Part shown: piece by piece, positions 1 through 13,697 of the stretch
Position numbering within the stretch: the first letter of the stretch is position 1
Layout: the number at the start of each line of letters is the position of its first letter
NCBI GenBank assembly: GCA_020434365.1
Contig: JAGRAX010000001.1
Span: forward strand, 8,568 to 72,567
Direction: 5' to 3'
From: Bdellovibrionales bacterium
Lineage (GTDB): Bacteria; Bdellovibrionota_G; JALEGL01; JAGRMV01
Length of the DNA: 64,000 nucleotides
Notes under the pieces: generated by a model
Told to the model about the DNA's origin: nothing
Database searches by the model: none
What the model saw: the letters and a program-made list of their open reading frames with translations, nothing else
Made by a program: the position numbers and the translations under genes

Positions 1-791
1 AGGTCTTTGCATTTTTGATAAAAGTTTTCGACCTCTGCCCGTTGAACTTTTTGATCTTCATCAAGAGACGTCATGAACTGTCGTTTTGAAGATTCATCTT
101 CGGACTCAACCGTGATCAAACCCATGTTAAAAAACAAAAACAGTGTTTGATAGATTAACAGTTTATCAAGAAAACTGGCTTCAAAAACTTCTTTGACACT
201 GGAGTTGTGTAAGAGCACATCAAATATACTTTGCTGCTCTTTGCTCAGCTCATTTCTTTCTTCTTTCGAAAGCAAAGACAGTTTGGTACTGCCCTCTTTT
301 AACTTAGGTGCGATGGAAAAAATTCGGTCAATAGAATATTCCTGAACCACACGTTCCAAAAAAGCTTTTCGAGAAAGAATCATAGGTACCGTAGCTGGAA
401 ATGTTTGATTGGCAAATACCAATTTGGATTCTTTTTCCCGAGCAATGTTTTGCAGGATATATTCTGCGAGCTCTTCTTTTTTTTGAGAAATTTCGTTAGG
501 TGAAAGCTCAAGATCTTTGACAGCCAAATCCCATTGACGAATGTTGGGGTCTGCGGCCTGAATCAAATAGCTTTCGTATTGCTTGGTGTTGAGGAGCTGT
601 TTTTGAAACAAAAAAGAACCCGGAAGCTCCATTTTTGCATTGGAGGAAACCACCAAACAGTCCCCATCTCTAAAAAGAATCTGCCGAATGCAATGCCCAT
701 TATCGATTTTTAGAATGCCGTTTAGACGATGTCGGTAAATAGAGGAAACTCCCTCGATGAAGTGCAGCTGAGAAAAGGCCTGTTCTTCCAC
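1..791 (-). CDS. DUF4388-like domain protein (C-terminal part beyond the window edge)
   Basis: Not in the ORF track because it runs off the window. The minus-strand frame is open from a GTG at 791..789 (overlapping the TAG stop of the upstream Hsp70 gene by 1 nt, TAGTG) to position 1. The N-terminal ~90 aa (..IEGVSSIYRHRLNGILKIDNGHCIRQILFRDGDCLVVSS..LPGSFLFQKQLLNTKQY..) fits the DUF4388 (PatA N-terminal-like) pattern as I remember it. Confidence 0.4.
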   Translation of the reverse strand, partial: MEEQAFSQLHFIEGVSSIYRHRLNGILKIDNGHCIRQILFRDGDCLVVSSNAKMELPGSFLFQKQLLNTKQYESYLIQAADPNIRQWDLAVKDLELSPNEISQKKEELAEYILQNIAREKESKLVFANQTFPATVPMILSRKAFLERVVQEYSIDRIFSIAPKLKEGSTKLSLLSKEERNELSKEQQSIFDVLLHNSSVKEVFEASFLDKLLIYQTLFLFFNMGLITVESEDESSKRQFMTSLDEDQKVQRAEVENFYQKCKD

Positions 792-2359
792 TATACAACT
801 CCAGGAGCCAGTTCTTCTGGAAGATTTTCAAGGGTTTTTAAACGTTCATTCTCTAGACGGCCCGAGGCCACCAAGCGAACGGACTGCGTATGTTTGGTCT
901 CTACATCTCTTGCCGTCACATTGAGGATTCCATTGGTGTCGATTTCAAAAGTGACTTCGATCGCCACCTCTCCCGCTGCAGCTTTTCGAAGACCGTCCAA
1001 AGTAAACTCGCCCAAAAGTTCATTGTCTTGGGCCTTTGCAGATTCTCCCTGAAAGATTCTAATTTTCACTGCGCTTTGTTCATCTACGTTCGTTGTAAAA
1101 TTTCGCGTATGATCCACAGGCAGAGGCGTATTGATATCAATGATTCTTTGAATGAATCCCCCCCGAATTTCAATGCCCAGAGATAGAGGCGTAAGATCCA
1201 CCAACACTACATCGGAGGTTTGGCCTCCGAGAACGCTTCCTTGAATCGCTGCCCCAACAGCCACAACTTGTTCCGGATCAATTTCAGTTTTGGGTTGTTT
1301 TTGAAAATAACTTTGAACAAATTCTCGAACTGTCGGCATTTTTGTGGGACCTCCGACAAGAATCAAACCATCTAAATTTGAAACCGAAAGATGCGCCTTT
1401 TGGAAGGCCTCATCCGAAACTAAGAATGTTCTTTGCATGAGCTCCTGAATGAGCTTTGCAAAAATGGTTCGAGTCAAAGACACTCGAAGATCAAAGCTCG
1501 TGGTTCCCGGTCTGAGAATGCCTGGAACAAAAATCTCGGCCCCTTCTTCTACTGAAAGAATGTGCTTGGCACGCTCACAGGCTTCTTGAACTTTTTGCAT
1601 CACAACCCGATCGGCTCGTAGATCACTTTGAAATTTTTCCTTTGCAAAGTCTACAACCCATGAAATCAATTTCTCATCGATATCATCTCCACCCAAATAC
1701 GTATCTCCAGCCGTAGAAACCACCTCAAAGACTCCATCTCCAAGCTCCAGGACCGAAACATCAAAAGTTCCTCCTCCTAGGTCATAGATCGCAACTCTTT
1801 GATGCCTTTGGCTTCCAAAACCATAGGCCAAAGCTGCGGCCGTGGGTTCGTTGATGATGCGAAGAACTTCAAGACCTGCGATTTTTCCTGCATCTACTGT
1901 AGCAGCTCGTTGATTGTCATTAAAATACGCAGGAACCGTGATTACAGCTTTGCTAAAACTCTCAGAAAAATATTTCTCTGCAATACTTTTCATTTTTTTG
2001 AGAACCATGGCTGAGATTTCCTGCAGCGTATACTGATTGTTACGAATGAGGAGCTCGATAGAATCGTTGGGCCCTTGAACAATCTTGTAAGGCTTAATCG
2101 ACTTGGCTTTTTCGACCTCTGGTGAGAAAAACTTACGACCAATCAAACGTTTGGCAGAGCTGATGGTATTTTCAGGATCAAGAATCAAATAGGGTTTGGC
2201 CTGGTGCCCCACCAAAATTTTTCCGTCCTCCCGAAAATGAACAATGGAAGGATGTACCTTTGCGCCGTTTTGATCGGGAATGATGAACGGTTTCCCATTG
2301 ACAACCACGGCTACTACCGAGGTCGTTGTACCCAAATCAATGCCTAAAATCTTCTCCAC
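791..2359 (-). CDS. Hsp70-family chaperone paralog (DnaK-like ATPase plus substrate-binding beta domain, no helical lid)
   Basis: 522-aa ORF. N-terminus [18 protein letters not shown] is the Hsp70 phosphate-1 motif, and [10 protein letters not shown] and [10 protein letters not shown] are the other ATPase motifs. The protein ends shortly after the SBD-beta region (..[14 protein letters not shown]..) and is about 100 aa shorter than DnaK. Confidence 0.85.
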
Positions 2360-2399
2360 AATTGACCCTCTACTTGTACAATGCTAGCTAGGGACTCAC

Positions 2400-3635
2400 A
2401 TGAAAGCACCCAAAACAGATGTGGTCCAACTCTCAGATATTGAAAGGGCGCAAAAGCGCATATCCGATTCTCTCTATTGTACACCATGCATTGAGTTTTT
2501 TTCTCCTTTTTTTTCAAAGCCTTCGCCCAAACTCTATCTAAAATTAGAAACCATGCATCAAACGGGCTGCTTCAAAGAACGTGGCGCGTTAAACAAACTT
2601 CTCTCCATTGATGAAAAAAATCTAGGCAAGCGGGTCATCGGAGCTTCTGCTGGGAACCATGCGCAGTCGGTTTCTTATCATGGGGCGCGTTTGGGATTTG
2701 AAGTCTCCATGATTATGCCGGAAAGCACGCCCAACAATAAAATTTTTGCCACCGAAAAATGGGGCGCGCATACGAGATTGCAAGGACATACCGTAGACGA
2801 AGGAATTGTCTTGGCTAAGGAGCAAGCCAAGAAAGAGGGTTGGGAATTTGTTCACGCCTTTGATGATCCAGAAGTTATTGCGGGACAGGGTACGCTGGGT
2901 CTAGAAATTTTGATGCAGGTTCCAGATGTAGAGTTGGTCGTGGTCCCTATCGGAGGAGGAGGATTCATTTCAGGGACTGCCGTCGCGATCAAACATCTCA
3001 AACCTTCTTGCAAAATTATCGGCGTGCAGAGTGAAAAGTTTCCCAGCATGTACCACAAATTTACACATACGCCCGCTCCCCCTCGAAGCCTGGAATCTAG
3101 CATTGCCGATGGAATTGCCGTGAAAGGACTTGGCAGCTATACGCAGCCTCTGATCGAAAAATACGTCGATGACATTGTTTTGGTTTCGGATGAAGAAATA
3201 GCTCAAAGCATTTTACAGCTTTTGGAAGCCCGAAAAATCCTTGCTGAAGGTGCTGGGGCTGCGGGACTAGCCGCCATTCTTCATGGAAAAATCCCGCAGG
3301 CGGACTCGAAAGTCACGGTCACGCCCATTTGCGGCGGCAATATCGATATGAATCTTCTATCTCGGATCATTGAGCGCGGATATATGAGACAAAAAAAGCT
3401 CATTCGTCTCAACGTGGTCATCTCAGATCGACCCGGCTCTCTACACAAACTAACCGGAGTGTTGGCAGAGCTAGGTGCCAATGTTCTTCAAATTCATCAT
3501 CAAAGAGCCTCCACAGAAATCCCTTTTTACAATACAGGAACCGATATCACCTTAGAGACTCGAGGAGAAAAACACAGCCAACAAATTCTCGAACGCCTAG
3601 AAAAAGAAACCTACAAAGTCACCATTAAGAATTAG
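2400..3635 (+). CDS. ilvA: threonine dehydratase (threonine ammonia-lyase), short form with one C-terminal ACT-like domain
   Basis: 411-aa ORF. The PLP-dependent fold-type II motifs SAGNHAQ and GGGG glycine loop are present, and a C-terminal regulatory domain follows. It is divergent from the Hsp70 gene with a 40-nt spacer. Confidence 0.85.
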   Translation: MKAPKTDVVQLSDIERAQKRISDSLYCTPCIEFFSPFFSKPSPKLYLKLETMHQTGCFKERGALNKLLSIDEKNLGKRVIGASAGNHAQSVSYHGARLGFEVSMIMPESTPNNKIFATEKWGAHTRLQGHTVDEGIVLAKEQAKKEGWEFVHAFDDPEVIAGQGTLGLEILMQVPDVELVVVPIGGGGFISGTAVAIKHLKPSCKIIGVQSEKFPSMYHKFTHTPAPPRSLESSIADGIAVKGLGSYTQPLIEKYVDDIVLVSDEEIAQSILQLLEARKILAEGAGAAGLAAILHGKIPQADSKVTVTPICGGNIDMNLLSRIIERGYMRQKKLIRLNVVISDRPGSLHKLTGVLAELGANVLQIHHQRASTEIPFYNTGTDITLETRGEKHSQQILERLEKETYKVTIKN

Positions 3636-3806
3636 AGACTGTTCTGTTCTTTTCTTTATCCCAATGGAAAGCCATTGAAAAAATATCTTTGCCCTTGACA
3701 TTACTCACTTCCCTATCCTAGGGTCATTTCAGATACAATATACGAGACCTAAAAGGAGGTATTTCAAATGAAATAATATATAGGGCGATATGCCATAGGA
3801 GCTTTT

Positions 3807-4277
3807 TTGGCGCTAATGGCCACAACTCAGGCTTATGGAGCGGATGCAAGCATCTCATACAAGATGATCAATGGGACAGAGAACACGTCGTGCAGCTATG
3901 AAGCGCAATGGATCACCGAAGACTCCGTAGATAAAAGTAATATTATCTCTAGAAATGATTTTACCGAAAAAGACTTAGGCAACTATGGGAATATTTACGC
4001 CCAAGTTATCAGAACCTACTACACTCAAAAAGGTAACTTCAAAAATCAAAGTCCAGAAAAACAAATACCGGGACAACAGTCATTTTGTGATTCATTCTCG
4101 GTTTGTGCTCTAACTTTTGTTTGTAAAAATACTGCTGAGAGCACACAAGTAGAAGTCACGATTCAAGATCACAAAGGAAAAACTTCAACCTACAACATCG
4201 ATGTTCATAAAAAAGGGGAAAAAGGGAAACCTTTCGAAGGATCTCATATAGATGGTGTAAGTGTATACGTAAAATAA
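3807..4277 (+). CDS. hypothetical small secreted protein
   Basis: 156-aa ORF with a TTG start, 7 nt after an AGGAG. It has a hydrophobic N-terminus and ends at a strong intrinsic terminator. I recognise no domain. Confidence 0.4.
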   Translation: MALMATTQAYGADASISYKMINGTENTSCSYEAQWITEDSVDKSNIISRNDFTEKDLGNYGNIYAQVIRTYYTQKGNFKNQSPEKQIPGQQSFCDSFSVCALTFVCKNTAESTQVEVTIQDHKGKTSTYNIDVHKKGEKGKPFEGSHIDGVSVYVK

Positions 4278-4298
4278 CTCTAAAAAAATACATACTTT

Positions 4299-4336
4299 AC
4301 CTCCTGGGTTTTCCAAACTCAGGAGGTTTTTTTTGT
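4299..4336 (+). terminator. rho-independent terminator
   Basis: Stem ACCTCCTG / CAGGAGGT with a 13-nt loop, followed by a run of 9 T, directly downstream of the 3807..4277 ORF. Confidence 0.8.
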
Positions 4337-4535
4337 TCGCTACATTTTTTTCATAAAGTCACAAAAGCTTATGTTTTTGAAGAATTCTGATCAATAGAGA
4401 AGAATTTTGATCTCGTAAGAATCTTGGAAATCCCCAAACATCTTTGTAGCTGATTTGAATCCAAGAAAAGGGCAGCATGTTTCTCTTTGAAAAATCTGGA
4501 TCGAACTTTATCTCTTTTGTGTCTGTGTTATATCT

Positions 4536-5096
4536 GTGACCATGTTTGCTTGGATTGTACTGGTGCAGTGGCTTGCACGTTTGATTTTTGCCCTTTTGAT
4601 TGCTCTTTCGATCTGGTCTGTTCGGATCATGTTGGAACGCAAAAAATATTTTGCTTCACTGAAGCTAGATCCTTCGAAAGACTTTGTGGAGCAAGCTGAC
4701 CAGAATGCGTTTTTCGCGCAGGCGCGTGCGTCTCTCTCCACAGCTTCAACTCCAGAATCTGTAGAACGAAAATATCAAAACCATCTTCATTTGATTTCAA
4801 AGGATCTTCAAAAAGATCTTGCAAGTTTGGGTACACTGGGAAGCATCAGTCCTTTTATAGGTCTATTGGGAACGGTGTGTGGAATCATTGCAGCTTTTGG
4901 AGATCTTTCGCAGGGAACGCAAAATACAAATCAGATGATGTTTTCTTTGGCCGAAGCGCTGCTTCTTACAGCTGTAGGTTTGGGCGTAGCCATTCCTGCT
5001 GTGGTTGCCTACAATTATTTTTCTCGTCAGGTCAAAGAAGTGCTGTCTCACCTTACTTGTCTTAAAAACGAACACCTAGAATCTATGGAAAGCTAA
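4536..5096 (+). CDS. exbB: MotA/TolQ/ExbB proton-channel protein
   Basis: 186 aa with three TM segments and the MotA/TolQ/ExbB C-terminal signature (..GLLGTVCGIIAAF..MMFSLAEALLLTAVGL..). It is followed by exbD, a tonB-like gene and a TonB-dependent receptor. Start is GTG at 4536 or ATG at 4542. Confidence 0.85.
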   Translation: MTMFAWIVLVQWLARLIFALLIALSIWSVRIMLERKKYFASLKLDPSKDFVEQADQNAFFAQARASLSTASTPESVERKYQNHLHLISKDLQKDLASLGTLGSISPFIGLLGTVCGIIAAFGDLSQGTQNTNQMMFSLAEALLLTAVGLGVAIPAVVAYNYFSRQVKEVLSHLTCLKNEHLESMES

Positions 5097-5500
5097 TGGC
5101 TTTTTCTCCTGAATCAGAAGACGGCATTTTTGACATCAACATCACGCCTTTTGTGGATGTCGTATTGGTTTTGCTCGTCATTTTTATGGTGACTGCGCCC
5201 ATGCTGGCCAAACAAGCTCTTACACTTACACTTCCCGACTCTAGCGTCTCTGACCCCATACAAGCTACAAGTCTGGGCATTTCGATTTCGGCCTCCGGTC
5301 AGTTCTCCATGTACGGTGAGCTCACTTCCGAAAAAGCCTTTGTGGAAAAAGCCGCGCAGGCCATGCAAAAAGACCCAAACACTCAAGCGATGATCGCAGC
5401 GGATGTCAACTGCGCCCATAAACATGTGATCAAAGTGATCAATCTCTTGCGCCAAGCGGGAGTTGAGCGCTACGCCTTTCAAGTCAGAGTAGAGGAGTGA
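5096..5500 (+). CDS. exbD: ExbD/TolR biopolymer transport protein
   Basis: 134 aa with one TM (ITPFVDVVLVLLVIFMVTAPM), typical of ExbD/TolR. Its start overlaps the exbB stop. Confidence 0.85.
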   Translation: MAFSPESEDGIFDINITPFVDVVLVLLVIFMVTAPMLAKQALTLTLPDSSVSDPIQATSLGISISASGQFSMYGELTSEKAFVEKAAQAMQKDPNTQAMIAADVNCAHKHVIKVINLLRQAGVERYAFQVRVEE

Positions 5501-5503
5501 TGC

Positions 5504-6169
5504 TTGCTCAGAGTTTCCAATCAAAAGCATTGGCTTGTTTCTATTTTTATTCACCTGTCATTGCTGATCATTTGCATCTTGTTGGCTTGGGTGTTTTCAA
5601 AAAATCCAGAAAAAATAGAACGTTTTGAGTTTACGATCAAAGAAGTTCCTGATTTTGAAACGGCTCCTATTGCGAAAAACATAGAAAAAAAAATGCAGCC
5701 CATCCAAAGCAGTACAAAAGAGATTGATACGAATCAAAATCAAAATGTTCCAGAAGTCTTCGGCATTCGAAAAGACTCTCTGAAAACAAGTGGCTCTTCA
5801 GGAATCCATGAAAAAGCAGGCAATACCCTAGGCAAAGATCCTGATTCGCTCATACTTGAGGATGATCGAGAACTCCCCACTCCCAAGCCGGCCTACTTGG
5901 TTTCCCAAATGCCCGTGCTCCTGGCTCAGATTGACCCTGTCTATCCAGAAGAAGCCCGAAAGAAAAATATCGAAGGGCAAGTCGTATTGAAAGTTCTCAT
6001 TGATGAAGAAGGAAAAGTTGCAAGGTCCATCATTGTAGAAGATCCTGGCTATGGTTTTGGAAAAGCTGCAAAGGAAGCCATGATGGACTATACCTTTAAA
6101 GCTGCGCGTATCGAAAATCAAAATGTAGCCGTAGAGATTCGCTATGTTGTGCGCTTTGAACTGAAGTAA
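5504..6169 (+). CDS. tonB: TonB-family energy transducer (C-terminal TonB domain)
   Basis: 221 aa with an N-terminal TM. The C-terminus (..YPEEARKKNIEGQVVLKVLIDEEGKVARSIIVEDPGYGFGKAAKEAMMDYTFKAA..) is a TonB C-terminal domain. Confidence 0.75.
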   Translation: MLRVSNQKHWLVSIFIHLSLLIICILLAWVFSKNPEKIERFEFTIKEVPDFETAPIAKNIEKKMQPIQSSTKEIDTNQNQNVPEVFGIRKDSLKTSGSSGIHEKAGNTLGKDPDSLILEDDRELPTPKPAYLVSQMPVLLAQIDPVYPEEARKKNIEGQVVLKVLIDEEGKVARSIIVEDPGYGFGKAAKEAMMDYTFKAARIENQNVAVEIRYVVRFELK

Positions 6170-6174
6170 ATGTT

Positions 6175-8433
6175 ATGAAATATTACAGCCTTCTCATATT
6201 TTTAATTGCCAGCTTACACAACCTGAGCTCTGTGACTTTTGCACAAGAAAAAATATGCTCTGTTGCATTTACGATCAAAGAAAAGGGCAGCAAAAAGAAA
6301 ATTTCCAATGCGAGCATGTTTCTCCTTCCCGAGGGCCTGGAAAAAATCTCCGATGATCAAGGACAACTGAGCTATGATCACCTAAGCTGCACAACACATG
6401 CTTGGGTCATCAATCTCACGGGCTACCTTCGAAGAGATCTTGAAATCAATGTGGAAGACTCCATGTCAAAAACCATTTTTTTGGAGGCCGCCAGCAGTAA
6501 TGAATTTGAAACCATTGTTACAGCAGATAAAAATACCCGAGATGGATCCAAAAGAAGTATTGCGCAGAAAGATTTTATCTCTGCCATTGGGAGTCGCGGG
6601 GATCCCATCATAGCCTTAGAAAATGAAGTGGGCTTTTCGGGTTTTGGCTCGCAAGGAGGTGTCGTTTTGCAAGGCGCGGATCCTGAAGATACGCGTTTTT
6701 ACATTCATGGACATGAGATTCCTCTGATTTTTCACAACCTAGGCTTTTCTTCGATTCTGATTCCCGACGTGGTGGATTCTGTGCAGCTTTACACTGCAGG
6801 GTTTGGTGCAGAGTACGGACGAAGCATCGGAGGGAACGTCAATTTGGAAACTGTCGATCCTCGAAGTGATCGCATTCATGGAATGAGCTATGTAGATTTG
6901 CTCAATGCCGCGGCATTGGTGGAGGGACCCATTGCAGATCATCACTCTTTTTGGATGGGCGGTCGAATCAGTTACATTGGTCCAATTTTTTCATTGGTAA
7001 CCATGAATGATGACAGTGTGTCTTTCAATCAGGTCCCACAATTTTTTGATCTTGAAGCTCAATACAAATGGGACATTTCAAAGAATCTACAGTTTGACCT
7101 TTTGGGCATTGGATCCAAAGACACTGTAAATGTCTTGCTTCGAAATACGGATGATCCTTATTTCAAAGGAGAACTTGGATCCACCACAGCCTTTTATCGT
7201 TTCATCCCTCGGATTCAATATACATGGAATGAGCAAAATCGATTTGAACTATCTATGGGTCTTGGAAAAGATTATGTAAAATTCTCTCTCGGAGATCAGT
7301 TTTTTGATGCCGAAATTTTTCAACCTACCTTAAGATCAGAATGGGAGCAGCATTGGAACGATCAGTGGATCTCGTATGTGGGTTTGGACTTTCAGTATCT
7401 TGACTTTCAAGCGGATGTAAATTTGCCTGCAGGATCTTTTCCCAATGCAGAGGATGAAAATGTGCCTTTGAGTTTGAGAGATGTCATTGTCAAAGAAATT
7501 GAGCAACAAGCACTGCAAGCTGGAGCATATCTGCGAGTTGATTTTTTGACTCAAGATCAGATTTGGAGATTTTCTCCCAATCTTCGTTTCGATTATTTTG
7601 GTCTCACACACAACCTACACATTCAACCAAGGCTCGAGATCGAATCTCGCATTGATAAGCATTGGCGCGCGAGGCTCTCAGGGGGATTGTACCATCAAGC
7701 TCCTCAACCTGCAGAACTGGAAAGCAGTTTTGGAAATCCAGATCTCGAAGATCCCTATGCCCTTCACTATGTTGTCAGTGCTTTGATGGATTTTAGAGAT
7801 AAAAAAGCAGAAGGTTTGTACGGAGATTTCAGCATTTTTTATAAGGACCTTTACAATCTTGTCGTAGACAGTGATGCGCTGATCACAAGAAATGGCAGCC
7901 TCGTCCCCCAAAGATATAGCAATGATGGCAGCGGCTACAGCATCGGAAATCAATGGTCACTCCGATACAATAAAGGCAGATGGTCTCATGCTTTGGCCTA
8001 TACGCTTCTTTGGTCAGAAAAATTCTCTCCCGATGAAGCGCTGTATCCATCATTAGGAGAGCAAAGACACAATGCAAATCTTCGATCGACGGTGAAGCTA
8101 GGAAACTGGTCATTGGGAGCGCGACTACGTGTCATTTCGGGTCAGCGCTATACGCCGGTGCTATCTGCAGCCTATGATGCGGACCAAGATATTTTCTTGC
8201 CTTCTTTTGGGGCGCGTAATTCTCGTCGCGGACCTTTGTTTTATCAATTGGATCTACGCCTGGATCGAAAATGGATCTATGATCAATGGATTCTTTCCTT
8301 TTATCTCGATATTCAAAATGTAACCAATCGAAATAATCCTTTCGAAGTTGAGTATAATTTTGACTACTCGGAGCAAGAGTACTCATCGGGCATTCCGATT
8401 TTGCCAACTTTTGGAATCAAAGGAGAGTTTTAA
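6175..8433 (+). CDS. TonB-dependent outer-membrane receptor with an N-terminal carboxypeptidase-regulatory-like extension
   Basis: 752 aa with a signal peptide, a plug-like region (..DPIIALENEVGFSGFGSQGGVVLQGADPEDTRFYIHG..), a long beta-barrel, and a C-terminal aromatic residue (..FGIKGEF). Confidence 0.8.
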   Translation: MKYYSLLIFLIASLHNLSSVTFAQEKICSVAFTIKEKGSKKKISNASMFLLPEGLEKISDDQGQLSYDHLSCTTHAWVINLTGYLRRDLEINVEDSMSKTIFLEAASSNEFETIVTADKNTRDGSKRSIAQKDFISAIGSRGDPIIALENEVGFSGFGSQGGVVLQGADPEDTRFYIHGHEIPLIFHNLGFSSILIPDVVDSVQLYTAGFGAEYGRSIGGNVNLETVDPRSDRIHGMSYVDLLNAAALVEGPIADHHSFWMGGRISYIGPIFSLVTMNDDSVSFNQVPQFFDLEAQYKWDISKNLQFDLLGIGSKDTVNVLLRNTDDPYFKGELGSTTAFYRFIPRIQYTWNEQNRFELSMGLGKDYVKFSLGDQFFDAEIFQPTLRSEWEQHWNDQWISYVGLDFQYLDFQADVNLPAGSFPNAEDENVPLSLRDVIVKEIEQQALQAGAYLRVDFLTQDQIWRFSPNLRFDYFGLTHNLHIQPRLEIESRIDKHWRARLSGGLYHQAPQPAELESSFGNPDLEDPYALHYVVSALMDFRDKKAEGLYGDFSIFYKDLYNLVVDSDALITRNGSLVPQRYSNDGSGYSIGNQWSLRYNKGRWSHALAYTLLWSEKFSPDEALYPSLGEQRHNANLRSTVKLGNWSLGARLRVISGQRYTPVLSAAYDADQDIFLPSFGARNSRRGPLFYQLDLRLDRKWIYDQWILSFYLDIQNVTNRNNPFEVEYNFDYSEQEYSSGIPILPTFGIKGEF

Positions 8434-9254
8434 TGAAGTCCTTAATTTTTTATTTTTTACTTTTTTGTCTTTCATCTTGCAGTGACCAGACCATTGAATA
8501 TTTTGAATTGGGAGAATTTAGATTTTTAACAGCCATTGCCAACCTACCGGAAGTCGATGGATCTGTGAGCAACATTGTAAGCATTACGCCTTACATTTCT
8601 GACATTGATGCTGGAGGCAGAACCATTGCTCTCGAAATTTATGCTTGTCCAGATCCTGGAATTTCAAATGGCCAAGAAGCTGCCTGTCAGCCTAGCCTAA
8701 GCACCACACAAAATATTTCCTATTCTTCCATTCACACTTCAAGTTTAGGAAGCAGTTTTACAGGCGCGCTGCCTTCGTTTTCAGTTTCCGTTCCGGCAGG
8801 TCTTTTGACAGGTCTTGCAGATGATGTTCGATTCAATGGGATAGATTTTATTGTCACAATGAATTTTTCTTTTGATCAGGAACATTTTTATACCTACAAA
8901 AGAATCAAAGTTTCGGAAAGGCTTTCAAAAAATACCAATCCTTCTATCAATGAAATTTTATTTTCTCAGAGCGCAAGCAAAGCCTTAGAAGACAAAGATG
9001 AGCTTTCGATTACCACAAGCGGAAATGCCGAAGAAAGTTATGAAATTGCCAAACCCAATACAAACGACAAAGAAACTCTGGAGGAAGAAGCTTTCGTGAC
9101 TTGGTTTACCTACCAAGGAACATCTGCCTTTTCTCGAACTTTTGTAGATGAAGGCACAAGCTTCGAACTTGGAAAAGAGGGAGATATCTCCAAAGCTTTT
9201 GTTGCCGCCATTCTCAGAGATGGCCGAGGCGGCGCAAGTTTTGCGATTCGTTAG
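8433..9254 (+). CDS. lipoprotein co-transcribed with the TonB-dependent receptor
   Basis: 273 aa with lipobox LSSC after an N-terminal hydrophobic segment. Its ATG overlaps the receptor stop (TAATG). No domain recognised. Confidence 0.5.
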   Translation: MKSLIFYFLLFCLSSCSDQTIEYFELGEFRFLTAIANLPEVDGSVSNIVSITPYISDIDAGGRTIALEIYACPDPGISNGQEAACQPSLSTTQNISYSSIHTSSLGSSFTGALPSFSVSVPAGLLTGLADDVRFNGIDFIVTMNFSFDQEHFYTYKRIKVSERLSKNTNPSINEILFSQSASKALEDKDELSITTSGNAEESYEIAKPNTNDKETLEEEAFVTWFTYQGTSAFSRTFVDEGTSFELGKEGDISKAFVAAILRDGRGGASFAIR

Positions 9255-10578: not shown

Positions 10579-12417
10579 ATGGAATATGAAAAAACCCAAC
10601 CGCAGTTCATGGACAAAATTGATGACGAAAAATCCGTCCCTCTTGAAAAATCCTATTTGGTCGCTATGACCGGTCCCCAAGCCGGTACTGTATTCACACT
10701 ATCTGATGGGTCCATGATTGTGGGAAGACAACCGACTGCAGATATTTTTCTTAATGATCATCAGGTCTCTCGAAATCATGCCGAATTTGTCACCAGCATG
10801 GGAGAAACGCAGGTCCATGATCTGGGCTCAACCAATGGAACCTTTCTCAATGGAGAAAAACTAGAAAAAAAAGTGGCGATCTCTGATGGAGATGAAGTTC
10901 AGCTGGGCGCAACTTGTTTTCGATTTTCGATTCACAACCCCATCGATGGAAATCGACTGGGCCTGAGCAATCACGGATATTTTGAAACGCGTTTGCACGA
11001 AGAACTCGATCGAGCCTCTAGGTACAAACGAGATCTGTCTGTGCTCATGATCAGTCCTGCCATCGATCCCAAAGAAATTTTAGACAAAGCCAAACTCCTC
11101 TCGGACCACTACCCTGACGTCGTTGAAAAAATTCGAGGCATCATTCGCACCATGGATTTGCTCGCGCACTATGGAAAATATGAATTGGAACTTCTTCTGC
11201 CAGAAACATCGAAAAAAGATGCGTTAATTCTAGCAGAAAGAATCTTGGCCGATGCTACTTTTGGAAAAGATGAAAACCTTTCCATTGGAATGGCTTCTTT
11301 TCCGGAAGATGGGCGCACTCCTGACATCCTTTTAGAGCGATCTCGATTGGCTTTGAAAAAAGCTCGAACGGAGAAAAAAACCAAACCCGTTGTAGACTTG
11401 GCAGAAGAAAGACATCGTCTCATTCTTTCCAATGAAAAAGAAGTCATCGTTCGAAGCGAAAAAATGAAGGAGCTTTTTGATGTTATCGAGCGCATCGCCA
11501 AATCTACCATCACCGTTTTAATTCAAGGGGAGACAGGCGTTGGAAAAGAGGTTGTCGCTGAAACCATTCACACCAAAAGTGATCGCTCTAAAGATCCATT
11601 GGTTTGTGTCAACTGCGCGGCGCTTACGGAAACGCTTCTAGAAAGCGAACTTTTTGGACATGAAAAAGGATCTTTCACTGGCGCAGATCAAACCAAAATT
11701 GGTCTTTTCGAAAGTGCCAATGGTGGAACCATTTTTTTGGATGAGATTGGAGAAATGCCGCTAAAAACTCAGGCCAAACTTCTTCGCGTACTTCAAGCCA
11801 AGAAAATCATGCGCGTGGGATCAAACAAAGAAATTAACACCGATGTGCGTATCATTGCTGCCACTAATAGAAAGCTCGAAAAGCAAGTAGAGGAGAAGAA
11901 TTTTCGCGAAGACTTATTCTATCGACTCAATGCCGCTACGCTCACCATACCTCCACTACGAGAAAGGAAAAAAGAGGTTCCCTATCTCGTACAAACTTTT
12001 ATCAAAGAATGCTGTGAAGAAAACGGCATCGACAACAAGGACATTTCACCCGATGCCCTAGATATTTTGATGAAATACTCCTGGCCTGGAAACATTCGAG
12101 AACTACGAAATACCGTAGAGCGCGCCGTTGTCATTTCTGAAGGTGAGACCATTTATAAAGAAGCCTTGACCAGCAGACTCACCTCTGATGTAGATCAGAT
12201 CACTTCTTCTTCTTCGATCGACAATCTAGATGCGGCCGTAGACTCTACCATGGTCGGAGACATGAAAGAGGTCATCGCCGCATACGAAAGAGATCTGATC
12301 ATCAACGCCCTGAAGAAAACGCAGTGGAATCAAACGAAGGCCTCAGAAATTTTAAATGTTCCCAGAAGAACACTGGTCTCAAAAATCAAAAAGTACAAAA
12401 TCAAAGAGGATGAATAG
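10579..12417 (+). CDS. sigma-54-dependent transcriptional activator with an N-terminal FHA domain and a degenerate GGDEF-like domain
   Basis: 612-aa ORF. FHA motifs are ..GRQPTADIFLNDHQVSRNHAEF..GSTNGTFLNGEKL... The GGDEF-like fold reads ..RYKRDLSVLMISPAID..IRTMDLLAHYGKYELELLLPETS... The AAA+ sigma-54 interaction motifs are VLIQGETGVGKE, ESELFGHEKGSFTGA and GGTIFLDEIGEM, and a C-terminal Fis-type HTH is NVPRRTLVSKIKKY. Confidence 0.85.
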   Translation: MEYEKTQPQFMDKIDDEKSVPLEKSYLVAMTGPQAGTVFTLSDGSMIVGRQPTADIFLNDHQVSRNHAEFVTSMGETQVHDLGSTNGTFLNGEKLEKKVAISDGDEVQLGATCFRFSIHNPIDGNRLGLSNHGYFETRLHEELDRASRYKRDLSVLMISPAIDPKEILDKAKLLSDHYPDVVEKIRGIIRTMDLLAHYGKYELELLLPETSKKDALILAERILADATFGKDENLSIGMASFPEDGRTPDILLERSRLALKKARTEKKTKPVVDLAEERHRLILSNEKEVIVRSEKMKELFDVIERIAKSTITVLIQGETGVGKEVVAETIHTKSDRSKDPLVCVNCAALTETLLESELFGHEKGSFTGADQTKIGLFESANGGTIFLDEIGEMPLKTQAKLLRVLQAKKIMRVGSNKEINTDVRIIAATNRKLEKQVEEKNFREDLFYRLNAATLTIPPLRERKKEVPYLVQTFIKECCEENGIDNKDISPDALDILMKYSWPGNIRELRNTVERAVVISEGETIYKEALTSRLTSDVDQITSSSSIDNLDAAVDSTMVGDMKEVIAAYERDLIINALKKTQWNQTKASEILNVPRRTLVSKIKKYKIKEDE

Positions 12418-12429
12418 ATCGGAGGATAG

Positions 12430-13038
12430 ATGAAAAAAATTGTTCCGCAAAAAAATCTGCACGAGTTTTTTTATCAGGAAATTCAATCCATCTTGGCTCA
12501 AGAACCTGACTCTATTGATCCTGCCGCAAGTTTTTATTTGGTCAATCTTCTCTCCACCATCTATCAAAAAAATGAAACGCAGCAATCTGTCATCAATTTT
12601 TTTGATGAACCCTTGGCCTTACTCCTAGCCCGAGCACATCACAGCAATGATCCAGAAGAAAGATTTACGCTCTTAAAGCATTTGGGAGATCGAGCATTAT
12701 ATATTTCTGGATTTTTTGGGGACAGTCTCGGACAAAGTGCGGTGGATCTTGACTATTATATGGCCATGGGTGGGACGGCCTATCGATCTCTTTCTTCCAT
12801 TTCCAAAGAAAAACCCCGACAAAAAAATCTGTCAGAGCTTTTTCAAAGTCTTGCCGCACATTTTGCGCAGCTTGTAGACATCATCTCACAAATCAGCGAA
12901 GCTTCGGGGATTACAAAAAATGAAGACCTCCTTAGACTTTATGAGAGATGGATTCACACCAAGAGTTCTAGACTTTTGCAAAAACTCAAAGATCAAGGCA
13001 TTGATCCACTAGAGCAACATAAAAAAATTCTTCACTAA
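12430..13038 (+). CDS. hypothetical protein
   Basis: 202-aa ORF 12 nt downstream of the activator gene, with a GGAGGATAG SD-like sequence just before it. No recognisable domain. Confidence 0.5.
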   Translation: MKKIVPQKNLHEFFYQEIQSILAQEPDSIDPAASFYLVNLLSTIYQKNETQQSVINFFDEPLALLLARAHHSNDPEERFTLLKHLGDRALYISGFFGDSLGQSAVDLDYYMAMGGTAYRSLSSISKEKPRQKNLSELFQSLAAHFAQLVDIISQISEASGITKNEDLLRLYERWIHTKSSRLLQKLKDQGIDPLEQHKKILH

Positions 13039-13046
13039 GCTTTCTA

Positions 13047-13697
13047 ATGTTGGGGCATTTTTTACATAAACGTCTTGAGTTGATTTATGGAGCTAGCAGT
13101 TCGTTGCGACTACACGATTTTATTCTTCCTCTCAAAGAGAATCAGGTATCAACAGTTTTTATGATAAGAAAAAAAACTGATGTATCCATCGCCGTCGGCC
13201 TGAAACCTCAAATTTTGGAACTCGCAAAGAGCAAGCAGATCTCTCATAGTTCTATGGAAAATTTTTGGGAACTGGTGGAAGAAATTTCTCATTTTACATA
13301 TTTGACTTTTTGTCTACGGATACAGAAACCCATAAGTCTTTTGGATATGGAAATGCAGGGAGAAATCGACAAGTATGTACTCACACAAGATTTGTTTGAT
13401 ACCGATCACACGCTCTACACAAAACTGTTTCACCAGTATTCATTGAGATCGCATTTAAATCCCGAAGAAAAGCAGCGCTACCATACCGCCAATCGATTGG
13501 GGGCAAAATTTATACGAAGTCTGACTCAGAAGAAATACGGACGTTTTTTTTGGTCTGAAGGGCTTTTGCGTAGGTTTAGAGATTTTTATCGAAGAGCATC
13601 TTTCGAAAAATGTCGTTGGGTTGAATCAAAGTTAAGCTTTTATTCCCGCAAGGAAATGGAGAAAATCTTTGCGCAATCAATGAGATCATGTAGGTAA
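13047..13697 (+). CDS. hypothetical protein
   Basis: 216-aa ORF tightly linked to the flanking genes on the same strand. No domain recognised. Confidence 0.5.
   Translation: MLGHFLHKRLELIYGASSSLRLHDFILPLKENQVSTVFMIRKKTDVSIAVGLKPQILELAKSKQISHSSMENFWELVEEISHFTYLTFCLRIQKPISLLDMEMQGEIDKYVLTQDLFDTDHTLYTKLFHQYSLRSHLNPEEKQRYHTANRLGAKFIRSLTQKKYGRFFWSEGLLRRFRDFYRRASFEKCRWVESKLSFYSRKEMEKIFAQSMRSCR

Follow-up and report, generated by a model that had tools for sequence, protein, structure and literature searches.

For two adjacent genes at the start of the analysed window, a stretch of 64,000 nucleotides of DNA from a Bdellovibrionales bacterium, we found evidence of a dedicated Hsp70/J-domain protein (JDP) machine, in which a lidless ATPase derived from DnaK would work together with a class-C J protein of its own. 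We give this reading a probability of roughly 0.7. The first-pass annotation had already proposed a dedicated, non-canonical Hsp70 module rather than the housekeeping DnaK, and this proposal gains from the absence of the lid in about 120 relatives, from scores below the equivalog cut-offs and from the adjacency of the two genes in all 13 loci compared. The two genes are located as follows.

791..2359, minus strand: lidless DnaK-type Hsp70 gene, with a GTG start at 2359 and a TAG stop at 793..791, encoding 522 aa
1..791, minus strand: 5' part of the partner gene, 263 codons, cut by the window end

The Hsp70 is 100% identical to a protein database entry (P0001) named 'Hsp70 family protein' from a Bdellovibrionales bacterium, and it matches the Pfam family HSP70 (PF00012) with an E-value of 4e-177 over profile positions 1-512 of 599. 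When aligned to E. coli DnaK (2kho), its residues 1-508 pair with DnaK 1-513 at 46% identity, and the catalytic residues D8, K70, E171, D194, T199 and D201 are all kept, together with R167, N170 and T173, which are involved in the contact with J proteins, and with D393 of the linker. The protein is divided into the following parts.

1211..2359, minus strand: nucleotide-binding domain, aa 1-383, with (own numbering) D8, K70, E171, D193, T198 and D200, and R167/N170/T173
1196..1210, minus strand: interdomain linker VVLVD, aa 384-388, equivalent to DnaK 389-393 (VLLLD)
854..1195, minus strand: beta-sandwich substrate-binding domain, aa 389-502, gapless against DnaK 394-507
794..853, minus strand: C-terminal stub, aa 503-522, equivalent to the beginning of helix A in DnaK

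The features that define an Hsp70 are thus present as far as the actin-like nucleotide-binding domain and the linker aspartate with the beta-sandwich, and the alpha-helical lid (helices A-E) with the C-terminal tail is missing from the window protein. Its C-terminus falls at about DnaK 527, some 20 residues past the beta-sandwich, which leaves no tail, none of the lid helices B-E and, of helix A, no more than a stub. Both the Pfam match and the alignment to DnaK therefore uphold what had been read from the sequence at first, namely a 522-aa Hsp70 with intact ATPase motifs that ends after the beta-sandwich without a lid. The residue map against DnaK further revealed changes in the arch (M404->R, A429->N) and in the partner of the lid latch (R467->A). 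The nearest Hsp70 cluster representatives, about 120 in number, are all about 516-533 aa long (median 522 aa), and the tails of these 120 representatives share a ...SGRL..E.(L/I)K.L... pattern. Judged from these sequences, the loss of the lid is family-wide, natural, ancient and conserved.

The border between the two genes and the region upstream of hsp70 contain two further features.

789..802, minus strand: coupling junction, with GGAG at 802..799, TAG at 793..791 and GTG at 791..789, one base being shared (TAGTG)
2360..2399, no strand: divergent intergenic region of 40 nt between hsp70 and a PALP+ACT gene

The overlap of stop and start, in which the TAG shares its G with the GTG, had been described correctly from the start. 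This GTG is the earliest possible start of the downstream reading frame, which follows an in-frame TGA at 830..828, and the GGAG sits 7 nt upstream of it, inside the hsp70 gene. No consensus promoter-like or terminator-like site was found at the hsp70/partner junction. With a stop/start overlap, an internal Shine-Dalgarno sequence and no intervening promoter or terminator, the junction has the sequence features of a translationally coupled operon, and the partner gene is probably both co-transcribed with hsp70 and translationally coupled to it. In the related loci anchored on the Hsp70, the gap between the two genes is between -4 and +16 nt in 6 of 7 and +79 nt in the remaining one (L012). On the other side, a GAGGG stands 6 nt ahead of the hsp70 GTG, and the divergent PALP+ACT neighbour is a threonine-dehydratase-like gene. 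The same 40-nt divergent arrangement of hsp70 and PALP+ACT is found in the related locus L001, and 3 other ENA/Logan samples contain contigs that encode an identical PALP+ACT protein, next to a gene that is cut and stands where hsp70 would be.

The window cuts the partner gene directly before the position at which its orthologs have a J-like domain. All 262 visible residues align, with 63% identity, to the N-terminus of a 637-aa protein of L001, in which a DUF4388/PATAN-like N-terminus is followed by a J-like domain without HPD, TPRs, an HPD J domain and a TPR-like tail. The true J domain of this ortholog matches DnaJ (PF00226) with an E-value of 1.3e-21 and has its HPD at residue 520, and the first J-like stretch, at 266-333, has none. 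Across 17 aligned partner relatives, H520, P521 and D522 are invariant and the first J-like domain is without HPD throughout; moreover, each of the full-length relatives has an HPD J domain near residue 520. On the basis of the ortholog and of these full-length relatives, the window partner is predicted to be a class-C J-domain co-chaperone of about 630 aa. The first-pass annotation had stated that neither dnaJ nor grpE is adjacent, and to the letter this stands, as tblastn found no second Hsp70-like, GrpE-like or J-domain-like sequence in the whole 64-kb window. As a premise about dnaJ it is wrong in substance, since the orthologs of the partner carry an HPD J domain and the partner would by orthology be a J-domain protein itself. 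The relatives were found by an exhaustive HMMER scan, whereas word-indexed searches for homologs, whether started from the partner fragment or from the family alignment, came back empty; a contig scan with the single partner fragment gave no match, and a contig search with a 6-sequence partner alignment returned only two MAGs that were already known.

The visible part of the partner can be divided into two regions.

312..761, minus strand: DUF4388/PATAN-like region, about aa 11-160, with a helix, three strands, a helical insertion and a strand
1..311, minus strand: helical/winged-helix-like region and long linker helix, ending where the J-like domain of the orthologs starts

The DUF4388 pattern first seen in this N-terminus did not survive in its plain form. 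Pfam, an HMM search of the kind that had been named beforehand as a way to refute it, gave no DUF4388 match for the visible part of 263 codons, with a limit as loose as E<=1, and close relatives reach 13-24 bits at the matching N-terminal position, below the gathering threshold of PF14332 (25 bits). As a remote homology it holds better. Aligned with hhalign, the family alignment A2 matched the first DUF4388 domain of P0153 at 94.7% (E 5.9e-8, 194 columns), and P0153 scores 165 bits on PF14332 in total, over two stretches. Furthermore, phmmer links the partner to P0148 (E 3e-6), of which residues 91-242 score 65.6 bits on PF14332, and 21 of 39 partner relatives match this family. It is thus supported, via profile methods only, that the partner N-terminus is a remote DUF4388/PATAN homolog. 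For this region AF2 gave a pLDDT of 92.5. In P0148 and P0152, PilZ or receiver domains precede the same PATAN-J-TPR core.

Adjacency of the Hsp70 and the J partner was found in 13 of 13 loci, whichever gene served as the anchor: on the same strand in 8/8 loci anchored on the Hsp70, the window itself counted, and in 5/5 metagenome loci anchored on the partner. The pair is retained in L009, L010 and L012 although all flanks differ. In two distant loci the lidless Hsp70 stands beside a J-only protein of 179-183 aa, without the DUF4388 part, so that the conservation expected earlier for the Hsp70-DUF4388 pair applies to the Hsp70-J pair in every locus, and the DUF4388 part is not universal. With 32% identity (2e-21), these small J proteins match the large partner over its C-terminal J+tail module, which points to the J module as the conserved core and to PATAN as an add-on. 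The conserved neighbourhood yielded no type IV pilus gene and no gene for another obvious target, and we found no description in the literature of an architecture that combines PATAN with DnaJ/Hsp70. The Bdellovibrionota loci also share genes for PALP, an inositol monophosphatase, an FHA-GGDEF-sigma54 activator, an RHS protein, NYN and ClpB. The RHS neighbour in relatives prompted us to consider a role in anti-phage defence, which was ruled out, as PADLOC defence-system models gave no match for the Hsp70, the partner fragment or the full-length ortholog.

Several known systems can be compared with this pair. In E. coli, HscC with DjlC/DjlB likewise stands apart from the housekeeping system: the lid of this Hsp70 is altered or shortened, and HscC has class-C J proteins of its own in place of DnaJ and is thought to be GrpE-independent (PMC8215388). 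HscC proteins, which are 550-580 aa long, have DnaK 76-101 deleted, a 4-8 aa insertion in L1,2 and a deletion of 9 residues in helix B (PMC8215388), whereas the window Hsp70 retains segment 76-101, has no L1,2 insertion and has lost almost the whole lid; it is also 46% identical to DnaK, against about 28% for HscC. The HscC subfamily was ruled out, since the protein is gapless against DnaK over 1-103 and 389-513, is 522 aa long and has no helix B. DjlC, moreover, is membrane-anchored, unlike the J partner here with its predicted PATAN/TPR architecture. The HscA-HscB system for Fe-S clusters is similar in that an Hsp70 and a JDP, whose genes lie together, form a dedicated pair and serve a narrow range of clients, but HscA keeps a full lid and no isc genes lie near the window pair. 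HscA was itself ruled out, by a score of 534.1 on TIGR01991 (cut-off 708.55) and by the GrpE-signature segment (DnaK 290-295), which is present in length and not deleted. With DnaK-DnaJ-GrpE the pair shares the chemistry of the nucleotide-binding domain, linker and beta-sandwich and the logic of the HPD J domain; unlike it, the window module has no lid, tail or grpE, and its class-C JDP is without the G/F, zinc-finger and C-terminal domains. In domain content, the window Hsp70 equals the laboratory 'lidless' DnaK, for which ATPase activity and allostery are retained and substrate release is faster (PMC8215388), but here the truncation is natural and conserved and comes with M404->R, A429->N and the loss of latch R467. 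M. xanthus, from a related phylum, has in MXAN_2747 an Hsp70 that is DnaK-like and whose lid is strongly shortened, likened here by its published description and as a lead only; it has a much shorter SBD-alpha, is non-essential and up-regulated in development, and the JDP MXAN_2745 is encoded two genes away (PMC8265645, PMC11019930).

On the side of the partner, the PATAN/DUF4388 module is found in the cyanobacterial PatA-type PATAN-REC regulators PixE and PixG, where PATAN is the output domain and has PilB1 and PilC, motor proteins of the pilus, as its binding partners (bioRxiv 10.1101/2021.06.11.447907). In the present family J domains and TPRs take the place of the receiver, and PATAN has diverged beyond Pfam detection. 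The partner would also combine a degenerate, HPD-less J-like domain with a functional HPD J domain. Such a combination is known from Pam16/Pam18, in which a J-like domain regulates a true J domain, although here both J domains would be in one polypeptide with TPRs between them. A regulatory contact between the two domains of the partner is pure conjecture, as the modelled arrangement of the domains has a pTM of 0.51.

Rather than binding clients as an independent chaperone, the lidless Hsp70 could instead be an accessory or regulator of canonical DnaK, Hsp110-like or nucleotide-exchange-like, with the J protein mainly feeding the housekeeping DnaK. A 2026 review proposed accessory and regulator roles for derivatives of bacterial DnaK in which domains are truncated (PMC13580251), and no GrpE lies near the pair in the window or in related loci. 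MXAN_2745 and MXAN_3015 of M. xanthus, JDPs whose genes lie close to those of atypical Hsp70s, co-immunoprecipitate with the canonical DnaK1 (PMC11019930), which means that such a JDP may also, or instead, serve the housekeeping DnaK. However, the tested catalytic residues and R167 are invariant in 119-120 of the 120 family representatives, the equivalent of linker D393 in 120/120 and the substrate-pocket V436 across the lidless family, and a divergence of the Hsp110 type is not expected to keep them. A private HPD J protein next to the Hsp70 in every one of the 13 loci also speaks against this reading, which we consider unlikely. A variant housekeeping DnaK-DnaJ operon for general proteostasis would agree with the 46% identity to E. 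coli DnaK, with DnaK being the best model match (PRK00290, 637.9 bits) and with a ClpB gene nearby in several relatives. It is nevertheless very improbable, given that the protein lies below every DnaK equivalog cut-off (648, 822, 1002 and 1019 bits), including NF001413 (637.9 vs 648) and TIGR02350 (621.2 vs 822.55), as it does below those of HscA and other equivalogs, and that lid, tail and grpE are absent. At the same time, Pfam found in the partner ortholog only DnaJ, TPR and a weak DUF4388, with no DnaJ zinc-finger or C-terminal domains, and its score against the full DnaJ equivalog TIGR02349 is 78.5 (cut-off 377). MXAN_2747, similar by its published description, cannot substitute for DnaK (PMC8265645).

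We give slightly less credit again to the idea that adjacency reflects shared ancestry within one clade and that the two proteins are functionally unlinked. Much of the wider neighbourhood is indeed conserved among the Bdellovibrionota loci, but the pair persists where all flanks are different and where the partner is cut down to its J+tail module, and there is an obvious biochemical reason for an Hsp70 to stand beside a J protein. Finally, the idea that a truncated pseudogene, or an artefact of assembly or gene calling, lies behind the short Hsp70, with an accidental overlap with the next reading frame, has only the unusual length in its favour and is effectively refuted by the same length and conserved C-terminal stub in the 120 nearest representatives from many samples, by the cut gene beside an identical PALP+ACT protein in the 3 other samples, and by the partner starting no more than 79 nt from the Hsp70 stop in every locus, which leaves no space for a lid.

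For the dedicated Hsp70/JDP machine, we hypothesise that the PATAN and TPR parts would bind a specific target or cellular site and that the HPD J domain would then trigger ATP hydrolysis in the lidless Hsp70, which would clamp the target. Specialised Hsp70s are known to co-evolve with their own JDPs (HscA/HscB, HscC/DjlC), truncation of the lid accelerates substrate release, and the lid is not required to close over folded clients (PMC8215388). Without a lid, binding and release could be fast and bulky or folded clients could fit, and such a machine would be better suited to remodelling or regulating one protein complex than to general refolding. We infer in this way the physical contact between the Hsp70 and the J protein, the targeting through PATAN/TPR, the kinetic effects of lid loss and the type of client. 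PATAN is described as an output domain for contacts between proteins, with PilB/PilC among those it binds (bioRxiv 10.1101/2021.06.11.447907). In a more specific and doubtful possibility, the PATAN-J protein is a gated adaptor that docks on a specific machine, as PATAN does in cyanobacteria; a polarity complex would be one candidate, and an ATPase of the type IV pilus or type II secretion type another. The HPD-less J-like domain would keep the true J domain off until docking, and the lidless Hsp70 would then fire locally as an ATP-driven remodelling switch on a folded client. If this were true, the relatives with PilZ or receiver domains (P0148, P0152) would be versions controlled by c-di-GMP or phosphorylation, and all these proteins would make up a family of Hsp70 recruiters under the control of signals.

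Specialised Hsp70-JDP pairs are already known, and the locus adds no new principle to them. It does offer a clean, conserved case of the natural removal of the Hsp70 lid, otherwise mostly studied through engineered truncations, in which the lidless Hsp70 appears teamed with a private J protein that would carry, besides a PATAN domain for interaction, both a pseudo-J and a real J domain. The pair could serve as a tractable two-protein system for asking what the lid is for and how JDPs steer Hsp70s to single targets, and it bears on whether PATAN domains, which have been linked to pilus motors and cell polarity, may make use of chaperone power.

The Hsp70 gene, its partner and its divergent neighbour were placed as follows.

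791..2359, minus strand: hsp70, an ORF of 522 codons with a GTG start (ORF reading)
up to 791, minus strand, running off the window edge: 5' part of the partner gene, 263 codons within the window (translation)
2400..3635, divergent from hsp70: PALP+ACT (threonine-dehydratase-like) gene (sequence, domain annotation)

The hsp70 ORF, with a GAGGG 6 nt 5' of its GTG, matches Pfam HSP70 (E 4e-177) over profile positions 1-512 of 599 only. Aligned against solved structures, residues 1-508 correspond to E. coli DnaK 1-513 (2kho; 46% identity), interrupted only by a single-residue gap near DnaK 184 and by the missing DEVD loop (four residues, DnaK 208-211), which is likewise absent from Thermus DnaK. 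The protein ends 14 residues beyond this alignment, at about DnaK residue 527, keeping only the start of helix A and lacking lid helices B-E and the disordered tail. In DnaK numbering, the catalytic residues D8, K70, E171, D194, T199 and D201, the J-domain contact residues R167, N170 and T173 and the pocket residues F426, V436 and I438 are all kept, and the linker reads VVLVD (VLLLD in DnaK) with D393 kept. This bears out the first-pass account, a lidless Hsp70 whose ATPase motifs are intact. The residue map against DnaK also shows replacement of the lid-latch partner R467 by Ala and of the arch residues M404 and A429 by Arg and Asn. Among the 120 best-scoring cluster representatives from a 5.8-billion-protein collection (51-100% identity to the query), the median length is 522 aa, with 510-539 aa in 116, the C-terminal stub ...SGRL..E..K.L... 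is common to them, and 119-120 of them keep each of D8, K70, E171, D194, T199, D201, R167, D393 and V436. Conservation across the whole family excludes a pseudogene or artefact and, on sequence grounds, marks the truncation as a family trait rather than damage. By their source labels the representatives are proteins of MAGs from Bdellovibrionota, Myxococcota or 'Deltaproteobacteria'; the entry identical to the window's Hsp70 (P0001) comes from a Bdellovibrionales MAG and is titled 'Hsp70 family protein'. Scores fall under every NCBIfam equivalog cut-off (DnaK PRK00290, 637.9 vs 648; TIGR02350, 621 vs 822; HscA, 534 vs 708). HscC or HscA identity was rejected because the defining indels, taken from PMC8215388, are missing in the DnaK alignment: the DnaK 76-101 segment is retained, the L1,2 insertion is absent, and no deletion shortens the 290-295 segment. 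Together, these scores and missing indels argue that the protein represents a separate paralog family derived from DnaK.

The partner fragment (263 codons) had no match in NCBIfam or PADLOC and no relatives from word-indexed homolog searches; searching 1.84 billion representatives exhaustively with HMMER returned 38 relatives, mostly 628-669 aa. A complete partner gene is present at L001, the Bdellovibrionota MAG locus of an 84%-identical Hsp70, where it overlaps the end of hsp70 by 4 nt and encodes a 637-aa product, 63% identical to the window fragment across all 262 residues. This ortholog carries two DnaJ-type stretches: the first (~266-333) starts exactly at the position where the window stops and reads ADP instead of the signature tripeptide HPD, and the second (492-560; E 1e-21) keeps HPD, at residue 520. 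Across 17 aligned relatives, H520, P521 and D522 are invariant, and HPD is absent from the first J-like domain in all. TPR repeats lie between the two J-type domains of the relatives and a TPR-like tail follows. The AlphaFold model of the L001 protein has a mean pLDDT of 88.4, with most 10-residue blocks above 85, and a pTM of 0.51, which leaves the relative domain arrangement undefined. In Pfam scans, neither the ortholog nor its relatives matched the zinc-finger or C-terminal domain of DnaJ, and the score for TIGR02349, the full DnaJ equivalog, was 78.5 (cut-off 377). By orthology, these features predict that the partner is a class-C J-domain protein (JDP). The statement that no dnaJ is adjacent holds for window content, tblastn over the 64 kb having detected no J domain, no GrpE and no other Hsp70, and fails in substance, since the orthologous partner is itself a J-domain protein.

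The partner's N-terminus had been said to fit DUF4388 (PF14332, PatA_N, PATAN). A plain HMM search, the refuting check named with that claim, does not recover this, the fragment having no Pfam match, DUF4388 included, even at E<=1; remote homology does emerge through relatives. Close relatives consistently score 13-24 bits against PF14332 at the same N-terminal position, below the cut-off of 25, and 21 of the 39 relatives overall match it at E<=0.01 (best E 7e-49). The fragment aligns to the distant relative P0148 (whole-library E 3e-6) across its Pfam DUF4388 region (65.6 bits), and a profile of 23 family N-termini matches the first DUF4388 domain of P0153 over 194 columns (94.7% probability, E 5.9e-8), a domain that the sequence search had missed, its alignment of the query falling on P0153 residues 409-644. 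A remote DUF4388 homolog is therefore supported at this N-terminus. P0148 (PilZ-DUF4388-J-TPR), P0152 (REC-DUF4388-J-TPR) and P0153 (tandem DUF4388...DUF4388-J-TPR) are J proteins with a signal-input domain ahead of the same core, and the PilZ and receiver domains suggest signal-controlled versions of the partner.

At the junction, the hsp70 TAG (793..791) and the partner GTG (791..789) have one base in common on the minus strand, confirming the reported 'TAGTG' overlap. This GTG is the earliest possible start past an in-frame TGA at 830..828, has a GGAG 7 nt upstream within the end of hsp70, and is a sound call because orthologs align from residue 2-3 onward. Consensus scans placed no promoter-like or terminator-like site there, and we infer probable translational coupling.

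The pair is conserved together in relatives, being adjacent in 13 of 13 loci. In eight Hsp70-anchored loci (the window and seven with Hsp70s of 84, 63, 63, 58, 55, 55 and 54% identity), a J-domain protein lies directly 3' of hsp70 on the same strand, the window's by orthology, with gaps of -4 to +79 nt, even with completely different flanks in three (L009, L010, L012). In all five metagenomic loci anchored on a partner motif, an Hsp70 of the lidless type, 59-63% identical and aligning with residues 1-515/520, ends ~15-75 nt 5' of the partner. GrpE was not called near any of the 13. Two distant loci have a partner of just 179-183 aa, which matches the large protein's C-terminal J+tail module at 32% identity (2e-21); this argues that the lidless Hsp70 and J module form the conserved core and that the PATAN/pseudo-J/TPR extension, present in 11 of 13, is an elaboration on it. 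L009, where the lidless Hsp70 has a small J partner only, encodes a 483-aa REC + PatA_N (PF14332) protein ~1 kb upstream on the opposite strand (3487-4938), so PATAN may be supplied in trans there.

The hsp70 and PALP+ACT start codons are only 40 nt apart (2360-2399), in the window and L001, and both promoters must therefore sit within neighbouring coding regions; no sigma-70-like site was found for the minus strand. Beyond the window's left edge, four Bdellovibrionota relatives carry, after the pair and on its strand, a DUF6531/RHS/YD-shell protein (~565 aa) and NYN_YacP (~170 aa) (L001:14131-16401, L002:9490-11693, L008:10793-13000, L013:8201-10434), followed in three by a convergent ClpB. 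This cluster is missing from the more distant L009, L010 and L012, and could be functionally linked to the pair or merely syntenic. Within the window, an ExbB/ExbD/TonB block (L003 annotation) with 752-aa and 273-aa proteins lacking a Pfam match (4536-9254) separates the PALP and inositol-monophosphatase genes; these are adjacent in L001, L002 and L013, so the block is a lineage-specific insertion into a conserved neighbourhood. An FHA-GGDEF-sigma54-activator-HTH_8 protein (612 aa) and two ~200-aa proteins without a Pfam match follow (10579-13697); L001 and L008 have this trio and PilZ proteins flanking the pair, L002 and L013 part of the set, which hints at c-di-GMP-related regulation nearby. 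GC is ~0.38-0.47 throughout 1-64000, with no sharp compositional island, and the 64 kb contain no tRNA genes.

A dedicated Hsp70/JDP machine is the best-supported reading of the pair, analogous in logic to HscA/HscB and HscC/DjlC (PMC8215388). The partner's HPD J domain would trigger ATP hydrolysis in the fully competent NBD/linker/SBD-beta engine, and its non-J parts would set where and on what the Hsp70 acts. Judging from published lid truncations, faster substrate binding and release would be expected of a lidless SBD, and closure of the lid over folded clients is not a requirement (PMC8215388); both would fit a part in remodelling or regulating one defined target. In Myxococcus xanthus, canonical DnaK1 co-purifies with JDPs whose genes neighbour those of atypical Hsp70s (PMC11019930), so the partner may also engage canonical DnaK. 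An Hsp110-like accessory role for the lidless protein (idea from PMC13580251) is a less likely alternative, fitting poorly with invariant catalytic and substrate-pocket residues and a private J protein encoded alongside. A housekeeping role is unlikely for an Hsp70 that scores under the equivalog thresholds, lacks both a lid and a neighbouring grpE, and has a class-C JDP as its partner.

As for possible targets, PATAN is a protein-interaction output module that in Synechocystis binds the pilus motor proteins PilB1 and PilC (bioRxiv 10.1101/2021.06.11.447907), and links between DnaK/DnaJ systems and both type IV pili and polysaccharide control exist in cyanobacteria (PMC9239167) and M. xanthus (PMC4319316); pilus, polysaccharide and signal-control links are potential leads for the pair. 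The conserved neighbourhood yielded no obvious target gene, type IV pilus genes included. M. xanthus MXAN_2747, described as having a 'much shorter SBD-alpha' and as non-essential and developmentally up-regulated (PMC8265645), may belong to the same family. Both proteins are already in databases under generic names, and we found no description in the literature of a lidless-Hsp70/PATAN-J pairing or a pseudo-J + J architecture. The pair, a conserved and well-defined system that lends itself to experiment, is best seen as a variant of specialised Hsp70-JDP pairs and not a new principle.
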